From positions 2,802 to 66,801 of the IMG/VR virus record IMGVR_UViG_3300036939_000059: 64,000 nucleotides of DNA; one strand, given 5' to 3'. The notes below the pieces were generated by a model, which did not search any database, was not told where the DNA came from, and saw only the letters and a list, made by a program, of their open reading frames with translations. The stretch's first letter is position 1. The number at the start of each line of letters is the position of its first letter. This DNA is from a virus. Both the position numbers and the translations under genes were made by a program. Below, piece after piece: positions 1,631 through 53,940 of this stretch.

Positions 1631-2073
1631 GGCTCATCGTCGAAAGCTGCATCCCAATAGCGCACACTTCTAGGACTTATACTCTCAGTGGGATACTCTA
1701 TTGAGTGCGCAGGACGTGGCAGCGGGGAAGGCGGGGCTGAGTTCGGATTGTACTTGTAAAAGTCAGCCTGGTCTTGAATATTAGCTTGCTCTTCTAAGTC
1801 GGTGGTTGTGGGATGTAGGGTAGCTGGCTTGTTGGTAAAGACAGACTTTATTCCAAGTGCGATCGCACCTACCCCACCCAAGACGCTACTTGCTGCCGTA
1901 AGGGGAATCTTATCTATTCCCATAACCTTATCTCCTGGTACAGAAGCCAAGACGGAAGCCAGCGTACTAGCAAGCCCAAGGCACACTGCCGCCGTCACCC
2001 CTGTCCAGGTTGTTATCTTATCAATGTCGTGGGCATTATATTCAGGCATAAATCTCTCGCTCTGCTGTACCAA
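1627..2073 (-). CDS. Hypothetical membrane protein (two hydrophobic helices)
   Basis: 148-aa ORF, convergent with the endolysin, two TM-like stretches. Confidence 0.5.
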   Translation of the reverse strand: MVQQSERFMPEYNAHDIDKITTWTGVTAAVCLGLASTLASVLASVPGDKVMGIDKIPLTAASSVLGGVGAIALGIKSVFTNKPATLHPTTTDLEEQANIQDQADFYKYNPNSAPPSPLPRPAHSIEYPTESISPRSVRYWDAAFDDEP

Positions 2074-2086
2074 GCTTCCTATAAAA

Positions 2087-2120
2087 TAACCCAGACCTAC
2101 TCAACAATTAAGGTCTGGGT
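2087..2120. terminator. Hairpin, probable intrinsic terminator
   Basis: AACCCAGACCT...AGGTCTGGGTT inverted repeat just 3' of the Rad52-like gene. Confidence 0.55.
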
Positions 2121-2162
2121 TAAAGCCCGAAATTCTTAACAGCTCAATCGCCGAACTTATTC

Positions 2163-3056
2163 CTACACTGGCGCTGCCATCACCGATTCAATCCAAGCGA
2201 TCGCCGCATCTCCAACGCTTACCCCACTAGCCCTTAGGACCTGCACTTTCCCTTGGTAGCTGGCGCGGGCGTTCTCTTCGGTTGGGAAATGGGATTTAGC
2301 CCAGCCAACCGCTAAGTTTTCCACCAACCGAACAAATAGATCTGGCGGCAAGTCAGACGGCGCTTCACACTCATAATGCTTGCACCAATCAGCGATCGCT
2401 TTTGGGTTGTGCCCCGTTTTCTCCCGAATTTTCTTGATAGCCGCATTTTGTTGGGGGTAAAGAGAAGGGTGCGAGACTGGGGCTACAACCTTAAGTTGAG
2501 GCGAACCACCGCTCAGGGCTTCCAACAAGTCACCGTTCTCGCTCTTTGGTCTGGGTCGAGCTTTTTTAGCTGGCTCACCCTTTTCATCCTGCACCCAGCC
2601 ATTGTTGTAAGCCGCTTGGTAAGCTCGCCCATCGCCCTTCCCCCGCATATACTTGACAAAGCTGTCGCGGCTCTTTTTCTGGTCATCTAGATACGCCCCA
2701 ATCCCAAACTGTTCAGCCGCATCCCGGAAGGCATGACGCGCCGCATTGACGACGGGAGAGCCAATAATCTTCTCCTTGCCGTCGTCATTCAATTCTGGGA
2801 AAACTTTGCTGTCAGCAATCCCTTCTCTCGTCACTCCACAAATCGTCAAGCGGCAAATCATTACCGTTTCATTGCCACTCAAAAACGGTCCCTTCAGTTC
2901 GTCACTCCAATCGCTAGGACAAATTTCATTAAGGCGATCACGGATAGCTTGATGGGGCAAATAGAACCATTTACTTCCACCGGGAAGCTTGCGTTCTTTG
3001 TGAGCTTCAGGGGGGAACCAAGCGGCAAGTTGACGCAGGATGTCGTCTAAATTCAT
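2163..3056 (-). CDS. Rad52/Rad22-family single-strand annealing protein (Sak-like)
   Basis: FYLPHQAIRDRLNEICPSDWS, CRLTICGVTREG, AFRDAAEQFGIGAYL match the Rad52_Rad22 pattern. Confidence 0.85.
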   Translation of the reverse strand: MNLDDILRQLAAWFPPEAHKERKLPGGSKWFYLPHQAIRDRLNEICPSDWSDELKGPFLSGNETVMICRLTICGVTREGIADSKVFPELNDDGKEKIIGSPVVNAARHAFRDAAEQFGIGAYLDDQKKSRDSFVKYMRGKGDGRAYQAAYNNGWVQDEKGEPAKKARPRPKSENGDLLEALSGGSPQLKVVAPVSHPSLYPQQNAAIKKIREKTGHNPKAIADWCKHYECEAPSDLPPDLFVRLVENLAVGWAKSHFPTEENARASYQGKVQVLRASGVSVGDAAIAWIESVMAAPV

Positions 3057-3247
3057 TGTTCGTTTTCTCCTTAAAAGTTAAGACAGGCACTTTACGCCTG
3101 CCGGATTGATTGACCTTAGTTAATTAATTGAATTGTCAATATTTTAAGGCCTTATTGATTGCGCCATAACCGCGATACGTCGCGGTTATCTATCACATGA
3201 ATTGGCAAGATTAGTAATAGTATGAACGTGTAGATAAACACCCTGAC

Positions 3248-3284
3248 AAAAGGTTCAGCAATAGAGAGTAGCTGAACCTTTTTT
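3248..3284. terminator. Bidirectional intrinsic terminator
   Basis: AAAAGGTTCAGC-N11-GCTGAACCTTTT with A/T tails. Confidence 0.7.
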
Positions 3285-3289
3285 ATTAC

Positions 3290-3424
3290 CTATTTGTCTT
3301 TTTCAGTTTCTAATTCCGCTTGAGCGTCAGCAATATTGTCAGCCAGCTCAATTGCTCCTTCAAAATCACCATTCTCAATCGCTTCAATTACGATTTCCTT
3401 GAGTTCTTCGATGTCAATAGTCAT
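3290..3424 (-). CDS. Small acidic protein, 44 aa (not in ORF track)
   Basis: Hand-translated MTIDIEELKEIVIEAIENGDFEGAIELADNIADAQAELETEKDK*; GGAG upstream, terminator downstream. Confidence 0.55.
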   Translation of the reverse strand: MTIDIEELKEIVIEAIENGDFEGAIELADNIADAQAELETEKDK

Positions 3425-32358: not shown

Positions 32359-34995
32359 ATGCGATCGCCCCGTCTCCACCTCGCTCACCGCCACACTGCT
32401 AGAAGTCAAGCCCGTTCCCTGTACGCGCTCTCTCCCACCGAGCAAATCCTTCTTGCTCGAAAAGACTTCAACGCTTTTCGCTGGTATGTCAAAAACCACA
32501 AATCTTACACGCACCACCAAGAGTGGTCGAGGTATCTCAACACCGACCTAAACAGCAGGTGCTTAAACGGTATTGCGGGCGATGACCTACTTATCCTTGC
32601 TCCGCGTGGTTCGTCAAAATCGACATTCTTAATTGAGTGGGTTGCCTACCAAATCGGGCGACACGCTGCGCCAGAGATTCGCCAAGCCCTCAAGGTGCTG
32701 TATGTGAGTTATGAATTGAAGACAGCGCGTCAGAAGTCTCAACAAATTAAGCGCCTGCTAACCTTGCCAGAGTATCGGCGTGTATTCCCGTGGATTCGAC
32801 CGGGAGAAAACTGGGCGAATGAGTTGTGGGAGATTGACTTTGCTCACGCTGGTTTGCCAGGGGCTGATGAACCCTACACTGTGGCAGCGGCGGGATTGAT
32901 TGGGAACGTCACAGGTAAAAGGTGCTTTGTTGGTGATACATTAATAGAGACCGAGATAGGCGCAGTACCCATCTCGGAAATTCAAAAATATATCACTCTC
33001 AGGATTTTAACTTTCAATGAATCAACCCACACCCTCGAATGGGGACGCATCAAGAACGTTGCGTCAAGACCCTCGAATGAACTTGTTGAAATTAGAACAA
33101 GTGGAGGGCGTAGAGTGCGCTGCACTGCCGACCACCCTATCTATACACTGGAACGAGGATACTCAGAGGCCCAGTATTTACTGGCAGGGGATACCCTTGT
33201 CGTCACTACCCAAGGAAAAGAAGAAATACAGAAGCTGCCTTGGATGCAGCAAGGAAATGACCAACACTTCGGCGCATATTTGCCAAGACTGCTATCAGGC
33301 TTCCAGGCAGGTGCGTTTCAGGATTCGCTGCAAGGGCTGTTCGTCGATCTTCCTTCTCAGTCCAAGCGAACTTCAAAAGAAGGTGAGAAGAGGGGGCTTC
33401 GAGTTCTTTTGCAGTCACAAGTGTCATGGAGACACCCGCAAGAAGCCAAAGGATTGCGAGAGCTGTGGAATGAGGCTTTGCTCTACATCCAGGGGAAAAA
33501 GAGGGAGGTTTTGCCCGGACTGCCTACAAAAAGCACGGACAGTGCGCACACTACAACCAGCCAAGTGCTTGAACTGCGATCGCTTGTTTGCCCCGCGAAC
33601 CAGCAAGACTCAGCATTGTTCTCAGGCTTGCGCCAATGCGACGCACTCAAGAAAGATGTCTGGGGAAGGCAACAGCCACTACAAAGATGGACAGAGTTAC
33701 GGCAAGGATTTTCTCGACTTGAGAGCGGCTGCCTTGAGTCGGGATGGCTACCGTTGCACTGCTTGCGGGATTACGGAAATAATCGAACCCAAGGGCAGGT
33801 GGGGCAGGCTATCGAACCTAGTAGTCCATCACTTAAACCACGACCATTGCGACAATCGCCTTCAGAATTTGGCGACTATGTGTCGAGCGTGCCACGTCAT
33901 TCATCACAAAACGAAAAAGACTGGGGATTAGACAGGGTTGTCTCAGTTGTTAAACTTCCTGCCGTGACACAGGAAGTTTACGACATTGAGGTAGAAGGAA
34001 ACCACAACTTTTTCGCCAATCAAATACTATCGCACAATTGCCACATTTCAGTGTATGATGACTTAATTAAATCCCCAGAAGCGATCGCGAACCCCGACAT
34101 CCGTGAGCAGATGGTTTCCAACTATCGCAACATCATCAAGCCGACTCGCTTTGATGGCGCTCGCTCAATCTGTTTGGGGACGAGGATGCGACCGGATGAC
34201 ATTTATTGCACCGAGTTCACGGCAGACAATGACTGGCAAGTTGTTGAGCAATCCGCAATCCTCGACCTTCCCGATGGTGGGGAGTGTAGTTACTGGGAAC
34301 CCGAAGACGATGAATCCCCTGGTCAAACCCTTGCGTTCCTGCAAAGTATTCGGGAAAAAGAACCCGAAACATTCAGCTACCAGTACCAGAACAAAGTTAT
34401 CCGGATTGCTACCCAAGCCATTACTCCTGAACTAATCACTAAAGGTATCATCCCCTCTCAAATGGATTACTTGGCTTTGGGCATAGACCTATCCGCAGGC
34501 GAACGCGAGGTCAACGACTACACCGCTTTTGTCCTAGGGGGTATGGCGCGGGACGAAAAGGGACGCAATCGCTATTTTATTATCGACTGCTGGGAAGATA
34601 GACTGATGGGCAACATGAAGAAGTTAGAGGCGATCGCTGTCCTCTACGACTGTTGGCGACACCTCTGTCCTTACCTTGAATTATTTGTGGAGTCCAACGG
34701 CTACCAGCTTAGTTTTGCGGGAGACTACCAGGACTTTGTTGCCGAGAAGGAATACTACGACTGGCAAGTCACAGCGGTTCACTCTGCCGAGAAAAAACTT
34801 GAGCGACTGCGGGGCGTCACTGGGTTACTGGAGAATAAACTGGTCACCTTTAATCAGTACGGGCGGCTGATGGGGAAACTTACCCTGCAACTGACCAACC
34901 ACGGAAGTACTAGCCATGATGACTTAGCCGACGCTTTTGAGAAATGTTTGAGAGGGTTGAGGGTGCGATCGCCTTTGACCGGGGCTAATTACTAA
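32359..34995 (+). CDS. terL: Terminase large subunit with intein
   Basis: Walker A LAPRGSSKST, Walker B ISVYDDLIK, RSICLGTR, nuclease LGIDLS..DYTA, VESNGYQ, HDDLADA. Confidence 0.93.
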   Translation: MRSPRLHLAHRHTARSQARSLYALSPTEQILLARKDFNAFRWYVKNHKSYTHHQEWSRYLNTDLNSRCLNGIAGDDLLILAPRGSSKSTFLIEWVAYQIGRHAAPEIRQALKVLYVSYELKTARQKSQQIKRLLTLPEYRRVFPWIRPGENWANELWEIDFAHAGLPGADEPYTVAAAGLIGNVTGKRCFVGDTLIETEIGAVPISEIQKYITLRILTFNESTHTLEWGRIKNVASRPSNELVEIRTSGGRRVRCTADHPIYTLERGYSEAQYLLAGDTLVVTTQGKEEIQKLPWMQQGNDQHFGAYLPRLLSGFQAGAFQDSLQGLFVDLPSQSKRTSKEGEKRGLRVLLQSQVSWRHPQEAKGLRELWNEALLYIQGKKREVLPGLPTKSTDSAHTTTSQVLELRSLVCPANQQDSALFSGLRQCDALKKDVWGRQQPLQRWTELRQGFSRLESGCLESGWLPLHCLRDYGNNRTQGQVGQAIEPSSPSLKPRPLRQSPSEFGDYVSSVPRHSSQNEKDWGLDRVVSVVKLPAVTQEVYDIEVEGNHNFFANQILSHNCHISVYDDLIKSPEAIANPDIREQMVSNYRNIIKPTRFDGARSICLGTRMRPDDIYCTEFTADNDWQVVEQSAILDLPDGGECSYWEPEDDESPGQTLAFLQSIREKEPETFSYQYQNKVIRIATQAITPELITKGIIPSQMDYLALGIDLSAGEREVNDYTAFVLGGMARDEKGRNRYFIIDCWEDRLMGNMKKLEAIAVLYDCWRHLCPYLELFVESNGYQLSFAGDYQDFVAEKEYYDWQVTAVHSAEKKLERLRGVTGLLENKLVTFNQYGRLMGKLTLQLTNHGSTSHDDLADAFEKCLRGLRVRSPLTGANY
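32923..34038 (+). mobile_element. Intein (372 aa) in terL just before Walker B
   Basis: Block A CFVGDTLIET, block B CTADHPIY, block F VYDIEVEGNHNFFAN, block G ILSHN/C. Confidence 0.95.
33017..33931 (+). CDS. HNH endonuclease with multiple Zn ribbons, in the +1 frame inside the intein
   Basis: RDGYRCTACG..VHHLNHDHCDNRLQNLATMCRACH; many CxxC pairs; true start uncertain. Confidence 0.85.
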   Translation: MNQPTPSNGDASRTLRQDPRMNLLKLEQVEGVECAALPTTLSIHWNEDTQRPSIYWQGIPLSSLPKEKKKYRSCLGCSKEMTNTSAHICQDCYQASRQVRFRIRCKGCSSIFLLSPSELQKKVRRGGFEFFCSHKCHGDTRKKPKDCESCGMRLCSTSRGKRGRFCPDCLQKARTVRTLQPAKCLNCDRLFAPRTSKTQHCSQACANATHSRKMSGEGNSHYKDGQSYGKDFLDLRAAALSRDGYRCTACGITEIIEPKGRWGRLSNLVVHHLNHDHCDNRLQNLATMCRACHVIHHKTKKTGD

Positions 34996-53476: not shown

Positions 53477-53692
53477 ATGAATAAAGAGCCTCCCTTTCCT
53501 CATGTTCCTAGATGGCATGATTCTATCCCTCGCGAAGTACAAAAAGAGATAGGACAAGCAGTAGAATCTCAGATGAAAGAGCTACCTTTATATCTTCAGT
53601 TTGAGTGGTACAAGCCTTGCTACCTTGAGAGGAGCTTTTTCCTTAAAGCCTCAAAGTACATAAGAATTCCAGGTTCAGATTATTGGCAATAA
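53477..53692 (+). CDS. Hypothetical protein
   Basis: 71-aa ORF. Confidence 0.45.
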   Translation: MNKEPPFPHVPRWHDSIPREVQKEIGQAVESQMKELPLYLQFEWYKPCYLERSFFLKASKYIRIPGSDYWQ

Positions 53693-53940
53693 GAAAGCGC
53701 AAGCCCAACAAGAAGTCCTACAAACGTTTCCTTGTCTCTCCCTACTGGAAGGAGGTGAGGAGTAAAGTCATAACGCGCGATCGCTACAAGTGCAAAAGCT
53801 GCGGGGCAACCAAATACCTGCAAGTTCACCACAAGACTTATGCCCACCACAGACAAGAACACCTCTACCTCAAGGATTTAGAGACACTATGCAGGAGCTG
53901 TCACAGGAAGAAACACCGCCGCTCTCAAATGAAGAGCTAG
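53683..53940 (+). CDS. Small HNH endonuclease
   Basis: YWKEVR..RDRYKCKSCG..LQVHHKTY..LETLCRSCH. Confidence 0.88.
   Translation: MAIRKRKPNKKSYKRFLVSPYWKEVRSKVITRDRYKCKSCGATKYLQVHHKTYAHHRQEHLYLKDLETLCRSCHRKKHRRSQMKS

Follow-up and report, generated by a model that had tools for sequence, protein, structure and literature searches.

The stretch of viral DNA analysed here, referred to as the window, comprises 64,000 nucleotides (nt) from positions 2,802 to 66,801 of the IMG/VR record IMGVR_UViG_3300036939_000059, a viral contig of 67 kb. It belongs to a cyanophage whose gene for the large terminase subunit, terL, is interrupted by an intein, and between the splicing blocks of this intein lies a second gene, in the +1 frame relative to terL, for an HNH nuclease with zinc ribbons. 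The features of the locus, with the evidence for each, are the following.

32359–34995, + strand: terL precursor open reading frame (ORF), 878 amino acids (aa) (ORF listing; PHROG terminase large subunit, 1.4e-50; Pfam Terminase_6C and Intein_splicing)
32359–32922, 32923–34038 and 34039–34995, + strand: N-extein, intein and C-extein, the parts of the terL ORF
32923–33216, + strand: N-terminal splicing domain of the intein, aa 1–98 (motifs; AlphaFold2 (AF2) confidence score pLDDT 88–96; conserved in alignment A3)
33187–33191, + strand: GGGGA, a motif like a Shine-Dalgarno (SD) sequence, 5 nt upstream of TTG 33197 (sequence)
33197–33931, + strand: +1-frame HNH gene of 244 aa plus TAG, with TTG 33197 as its proposed start (conserved family; shared TTG; wobble substitutions)
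33217–33915, + strand: terL-frame reading of the insert, intein aa 99–331, 233 codons (pLDDT about 30; stop-free)
33236–33631, + strand: four zinc-ribbon units of the HNH protein (Cys positions; family alignment)
33683–33928, + strand: HNH (beta-beta-alpha-metal) nuclease domain (VIA-align; PHROG HNH, 4e-8; invariant columns)
33919–34038, + strand: C-terminal splicing domain of the intein, aa 333–372 (blocks F and G; pLDDT 85–95; invariant columns in A3)

A sequence-only reading of this DNA had described an intein at 32923–34038 with splicing blocks A, B, F and G, an in-frame middle that held no endonuclease, and a zinc-ribbon HNH nuclease encoded in the +1 frame; this description is confirmed, and the interpretation that went with it is supported in part. 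The intein belongs to class 1 and is 372 aa long, its boundaries are exact, and Pfam Intein_splicing (PF14890) matches it with 67.9 bits against a cut-off of 35.8. Block A opens with Cys1 at 32923, in the motif CFVGD, and block B contains T68-A-D-H71 at 33124–33135; both Cys1 and the TADH of block B are invariant in alignment A3. Blocks F and G lie at 33976–34038, where the intein ends in SHN (His-Asn), and they are followed by a +1 Cys codon, TGC, at 34039–34041. The gene is a single continuous ORF and not the two ORFs that a split intein or a fractured gene would present. Since terL is essential and the splicing blocks are intact, the intein would be expected to splice. In the AF2 model of the in-frame intein, residues 1–98 and 333–372 come together as a beta-rich domain (pLDDT 85–96), which is the predicted HINT splicing domain. 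The terL-frame middle, residues 99–331, is poorly conserved in A3 and a Pfam scan found no second domain in it; because its pLDDT is only about 30, it is regarded as a spacer without a predicted fold.

The point of insertion lies six residues before the Asp-Asp pair of the Walker B motif (C-extein start, 34039–34062). Among 42 distinct junctions of relatives, 36 place the intein 4 residues before Asp-Asp and three place it 3 residues before. Total extein spacing is unchanged in the seven loci compared by eye, so that related inteins occupy slightly different codons within the same motif.

The +1 frame is open over 33011–33931, and its TAG, at 33929–33931, falls at the beginning of the C-terminal splicing domain. 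Read in the third frame, the same place stays open for no more than 32 codons. Its product is modelled as an HNH nuclease with four zinc ribbons. The zinc-ribbon Cys pairs stand at aa 14/17, 29/32, 45/48, 72/76, 87/90, 106/109, 124/127 and 141/145, and 10 of these 16 residues are invariant, with four more present in at least 90% of the aligned sequences; Pfam matches to zinc ribbons are weak. In the family alignment 34 columns are invariant, most of them Cys, His or Asn, and they include the residues of the HNH domain: C187/C190 (in CTAC 187), H211-H212, N220/N224, C229/C232 (in CRAC 229), H233 and H236-H237. HNH families of PHROG match the window protein at 4e-8. A structural model built on ten family members (mean pLDDT 75) was compared with known structures by VIA-align, and its residues 163–244 matched the HNH domains of EcoKMcrA (Z 7.0), GVE2 HNH (Z 6.8) and ZRANB3 HNH (Z 6.1), followed by Cap5 and Cas-HNH; eight of the best ten matches are nucleases with an HNH domain (Z 5.0–7.0), and T4 endonuclease VII is a weak match (Z 4.8). 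A sequence search of the PDB with the HNH profile gave nothing significant, and Foldseek on the whole model gave only E>0.02, because the model is multi-domain; the HNH domain was resolved by VIA-align. The window holds in addition a separate, stand-alone HNH gene of 85 aa at 53683–53940 (+ strand), weakly similar to the core of the intein HNH (E 3.5e-6), which may be a packaging-type HNH or another homing endonuclease.

The nested layout is far beyond chance, and the codon and substitution patterns indicate that both frames are under selection. A stop in the terL frame can arise only where an HNH codon that ends in T precedes a codon that starts with AA, AG or GA. In the window, T-ending codons occur before such codons in 0 of 74 cases, against 51 of 166 elsewhere (p=4e-10), and when 15 loci are pooled the figures for the same codon context are 0 of 974 against 537 of 3385. 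Synonymous shuffling of the window HNH ORF produces a mean of 13.2 terL-frame stops, and not one of 5000 shuffled sequences was free of them (p<2e-4). Between relatives, substitutions in the exteins and the splicing domains peak at terL codon position 3; inside the insert they peak at terL position 1, which is the wobble position (position 3) of the HNH codons. Therefore the HNH protein is under purifying selection, and the terL frame in this part is constrained only to stay open. The dual-coding stretch, put earlier at about 900 nt, is better given as the 735 nt of 33197–33931. The codon-context rule, with its complete absence of exceptions over 15 loci, is an absolute signature of dual coding and could serve to find further cases.

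The arrangement recurs widely. Two protein homologues led to contigs that both have the same layout (L003 and L005), and a scan of viral contigs added eight further loci. In cultured phages, tblastn places the family inside the terL of Synechococcus phage S-EIVl, Gordonia phage Clown, Ralstonia phage RS-CA1 and 41 records of Brucella phages. Frame conservation, which the sequence-only reading had proposed as a check, holds: each of the 15 loci studied closely, with GC contents of 37–70%, has this HNH family in the +1 frame of a terL that bears an intein, and of 48 strong matches in a metagenome scan, 44 sit in the +1 frame of an intein-bearing host ORF. Counting about 59 loci in all, the HNH gene is +1 relative to the host frame in every nested case, over a range of 36–70% GC. 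With selection on both frames and a middle predicted to be unfolded, this breadth supports the view that a separate HNH gene is overprinted in the intein.

Only 2 relatives of the nested HNH came out of a word-indexed search of 5.8 billion proteins, and none out of a scan of genome contigs; in an exhaustive profile search the clusters numbered 140 at E<=1e-30 and 3304 at E<=1e-10. Databases of called genes represent nested ORFs poorly or make them difficult to find. Standard annotation misses these HNH genes, since the records of S-EIVl, Clown and RS-CA1 list terL alone, and such inteins may be mistaken for decaying mini-inteins. Among the 150 best representatives there is no sound in-frame HNH relative. 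Three apparent in-frame fusions of N-extein, intein N-domain and HNH (P0116, P0111 and P0123) were set aside as assembly errors or pseudogenes; frameshifts or decay are visible in P0111 and P0123. The first of the three (P0116, 605 aa) comes from a 2.7-kb terL fragment (L090, GCA_020049755.1) in which the N-extein and the intein N-domain are in frame with the HNH, the C-terminal part lies in the -1 frame, and a LAGLIDADG intein upstream has a second frameshift; P0116 probably reflects indel errors or a pseudogene, and is less probably a natural fusion of IntN with HNH. Relatives about 86–92% identical over 32800–33231 and 33794–33870 were also seen in two runs of another soil metagenome sample, spanning the end of the N-extein, the intein N-domain and the end of the HNH gene and keeping the first CxxC knuckle.

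The distribution of the element is that of a homing endonuclease: presence is sporadic, there are empty alleles and decayed copies, and in most comparisons the element is more conserved than its host gene. Relatives of terL that lack the intein occur at three loci (L020–L022), and in one of them (L020) the C-extein is 61% identical and the junction has the length of the window's spliced junction. Between pairs of loci, identities are 26–68% for the splicing domains, 35–89% for the HNH core and 18–60% for the exteins; splicing-domain identity exceeds extein identity in most of the listed pairs, and HNH-core identity exceeds it in all but one. In one pair (L003 and L009) the splicing domains are 68% and the HNH cores 89% identical, with exteins at 43–44%. 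Decayed copies were found in L015, L010, L052 and P0111, and free-standing homologues away from the terminase in the haloarchaeal virus HRTV-28 and in Bacillus phage Sophrita. Together with the separate 85-aa HNH gene of the window, these findings speak more for a mobile homing element than for a factor in packaging. In L052, an intact homologue of 320 aa with an ATG start (2288–3250) stands beside decayed remnants of the intein C-terminus, with no terL, and the translation of the ORF downstream of it was judged by eye to be transposase-like; the endonuclease there appears to have outlived its intein.

As to how the HNH protein is made, conservation of the CLGC pair at 33236, which forms the first zinc knuckle, means that translation has to begin upstream of this pair. 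The sequence-only reading had noted, correctly, that this pair lies upstream of ATG 33257, and that codon was rejected as a start, as it would cut off the conserved first Cys pair. The earlier proposal of a start at ATG 33077 gives way to TTG 33197: ATG 33077, like ATG 33017, has no well-placed SD motif and would add 40–60 out-of-frame residues of the splicing domain. Between 33101 and the first conserved CxxC there is no canonical start other than TTG 33197, and the GGGGA before it is formed by the Gly-Asp codons of the GD motif that closes the N-terminal splicing domain. The same TTG is present in L005, L007/L025, L030 and L040, and the module GGGGAY-N4-TTG was found in 4 of 38 distinct loci by an automated scan and in L005 and L007 by eye. 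Elsewhere the same short gap holds other starts, a GTG after AGGAG in S-EIVl and an ATG in L013, and in Brucella phage Tb the GD motif is followed at once, in the HNH frame, by a TGA and then by AAGGAG-GTG, the annotated start. In all, 31 of the 38 distinct loci have ATG, GTG or TTG in this gap upstream of the first zinc knuckle, and in 21 of the 31 an SD-like motif accompanies it; these counts are approximate because the scan did not always locate the GD motif. A scan for an internal promoter found none above chance, and a search of sequencing runs of kind 'any', no RNA-specific search being made, returned no RNA run with this DNA.

Taken together, these observations suggest a model in which terL would be translated as one precursor of 878 aa, from which the class 1 intein would splice itself out to leave a terminase of 506 aa. 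Only the first 98 or so and the last 40 or so residues of the intein would fold, as HINT, the 233 codons between them acting as a spacer whose one requirement is the absence of a terL-frame stop. From the same mRNA, the zinc-ribbon HNH protein of 244 aa would be produced by internal initiation at TTG 33197 with the help of GGGGA. By analogy with the endonucleases of other inteins and introns, this protein would cleave the intein-less terL of co-infecting phages close to where Walker B is encoded, and during repair the intein would be copied, along with the HNH gene, into the cut alleles.

Several points weigh against this model. TTG is a weak start codon, and initiation in cyanobacteria depends little on SD motifs. 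No canonical start lies nearby in 7 of the 38 loci (again an approximate count; L008/L012 are among them), and another route may exist there. The window protein falls below the Pfam cut-offs (HNH_3, 18.3 against 24.8; HNH, 14.7 against 21.4), which its relatives in Clown, Tb and S-EIVl exceed, and constraint, as opposed to transfer, could account in part for the higher conservation of intein and HNH. The HNH protein nevertheless probably originates by internal initiation at TTG 33197, ahead of a programmed +1 frameshift by ribosomes that reach the end of the N-terminal splicing domain, which would yield a TerL(N)-intein(N)-HNH fusion at a rate that sets the dose of nuclease. This second route is unlikely. 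The HNH frame is open back to 33011, the junction AGGGGATACCCTTGTC agrees with the E. coli prfB +1 site at 12 of 16 positions, slips on AAA-G/AAA-AGG are formally possible in the window and in L007, and the seven loci without a nearby start would be accommodated. The prfB site, however, has a stop codon in the A site and an SD spacing of 3 nt; at the window junction GTC, an ordinary codon, occupies the A site, SD and CTT are 4 nt apart, and the motif is not conserved across loci, all of which favours internal initiation. The A-rich stretch at which the sequence-only reading had placed a possible frameshift fares no better, as it is not conserved in relatives and A-runs are absent from high-GC members. 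Moreover, L007 has ATT in place of CTT and cannot re-pair on TTG, and the RNA fold at the junction is unremarkable (z=0.35). In Tb, the stop between the splicing domain and the HNH start would confine any frameshift fusion to the few codons that follow it; an automated scan flagged an HNH-frame stop in three loci, with a placement of the GD motif that is unreliable. The two routes might also coexist, GGGGA-N4-CTT-G serving both as internal start and as a low-level +1 site, so that free HNH protein is accompanied by a TerL(N)-intein(N)-HNH fusion whose HINT half aids target recognition; this is very improbable, and if true it would couple nuclease dose to ribosome traffic on terL.

Homing by an expressed nuclease must also be set against readings in which the ORF is idle, has another function or is an artefact. 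That the HNH ORF is an unexpressed relic, its decay slowed by selection on terL, in a vertically inherited mini-intein with a long linker, would suit the decayed relatives (L015, L010 and P0111) and the weak TTG, but it sits poorly with an intact ORF that keeps every Cys, His and Asn invariant in the family, and with substitutions that point to purifying selection on the HNH frame and not on the terL frame. Selection on terL clears terL-frame stops only and offers no protection to the +1 frame, and the third frame is open for only 32 codons; a relic is held to be improbable. Somewhat less credit still is given to a terminase accessory nuclease placed in terL for co-expression and not for homing. 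In HK97-like phages, cutting at cos requires an HNH nuclease (Kala et al., 2014, as cited in PMC4422536), a functional association of HNH proteins with terminase has been raised (PMC4422536), and the gene is physically nested in terL. Against this, close terL relatives do without intein and HNH and have no similar HNH among their listed ORFs (of at least 150 aa in L020 and at least 200 aa in L022), the homologues of HRTV-28 and Sophrita lie away from the terminase, the spread over terL families whose mutual identity is only about 20% is consistent with a mobile element, and the window has its separate HNH gene of 85 aa. An assembly error, which the sequence-only reading had named among the findings that would overturn it, is extremely improbable: two compensating indels would have to mask an ordinary in-frame HNH intein. 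Both junctions do lie near A-rich runs, and the window is a metagenome contig. However, a Logan contig containing the stretch, assembled independently from a public run of a biocrust metagenome, is identical over 32800–34200, with neither differences nor gaps, and has a depth of about 16x; contig and window probably share one sample, which limits the weight of this agreement. The same frame relation recurs at the other loci, drawn from many studies and from repeatedly sequenced cultured phages, the 41 Brucella records included, the terL frame is stop-free well beyond what shuffling allows, and the single candidate for an in-frame relative among the 150 top representatives, L090, itself carries another frameshift upstream.

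It is plausible that the arrangement would separate nuclease dose from terminase splicing, as the sequence-only reading proposed. A further set of nested genes was noticed outside terL, in about 12 metagenome loci (L081, L073, L076, L078, L080 and L082–L088), where an ORF of 150–170 aa with helix-turn-helix and HNH parts lies in the +1 frame of an N6_N4 DNA methyltransferase ORF (in L081, host 2041–3318 and nested ORF 2210–2704). The methyltransferase frame is open across the insert, which stands just before the DPPY motif, and no intein blocks were seen by eye; this nesting may relate to the 'insertion elements' of an actinophage methylase family (PMC9957025).

The layout is not new, as it is known in Brucella phages and was defined as a class in a preprint of 2025. 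In Brucella phage Tb (RefSeq NC_019446, gp07/gp08), terL is annotated 'intein present' and a coding sequence (CDS) nested in it 'putative HNH endonuclease', and the HNH gene of Brucella phages has been called "out of frame" (Tevdoradze et al., 2015; PMC4422536) in work that ran no mechanistic or family-wide analysis. The window resembles the Perisivirus Tb/Pr group in having a homologous HNH (tblastn 8e-10) in the +1 frame, enclosed by the splicing blocks of an intein that interrupts terL shortly before the Walker B motif. Unlike that of the window, the Brucella HNH is shorter (228 aa) and has a GTG start after a stop in its own frame, the intein lies 4 residues before Asp-Asp instead of 6, and extein identity is no more than about 23%. 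Among cultured phages, the nearest relative of the window HNH is that of the cyanophage S-EIVl (KJ410740), with 35% identity over the full length (3e-32); its terL has the same +1 nesting and is annotated as a single 'putative terminase large subunit' CDS, and its intein, unlike the window's, ends in Leu-Asn, 3 residues before Asp-Asp.

Out-of-frame and antisense endonucleases in actinophage inteins have been described as non-canonical architectures, with many cases in terL and with the capture of free-standing endonuclease genes as their proposed origin (Gosselin, Arsenault and Gogarten, bioRxiv 10.1101/2025.01.02.630785). The window shares with that class a same-strand homing endonuclease ORF in another frame, between the splicing blocks, with the host frame open; their case differs in being endonuclease VII-like and in 'frame 3', and the window's is a zinc-ribbon HNH in +1. 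The phages named in that preprint are absent from the tblastn matches of the window HNH among cultured phages. Its supplementary table lists the terL intein of Clown as 'HNH', a class that the text treats as in-frame; in Gordonia phage Clown (L018, NC_055867, 2101–3255) the HNH is in the +1 frame, and the in-frame reading gives the splicing domain alone. Canonical in-frame HNH inteins, and fractured genes that combine split inteins with a free-standing homing endonuclease gene (Dassa et al., 2009; PMC2677866), likewise pair an intein with an endonuclease that is not LAGLIDADG, and in fractured genes the endonuclease is translated separately, as proposed for the window; unlike those systems, the window's terL is neither fused in frame to the nuclease nor split, and one frame runs through. 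To these known cases the present analysis adds a likely start codon set in the GD motif of the intein, an absolute rule of codon context, a variant of the insertion site and the breadth of the family. Intein and homing endonuclease thus appear as separate genetic partners on one stretch of DNA, which supports the acquisition of the nuclease through capture of a free-standing gene.

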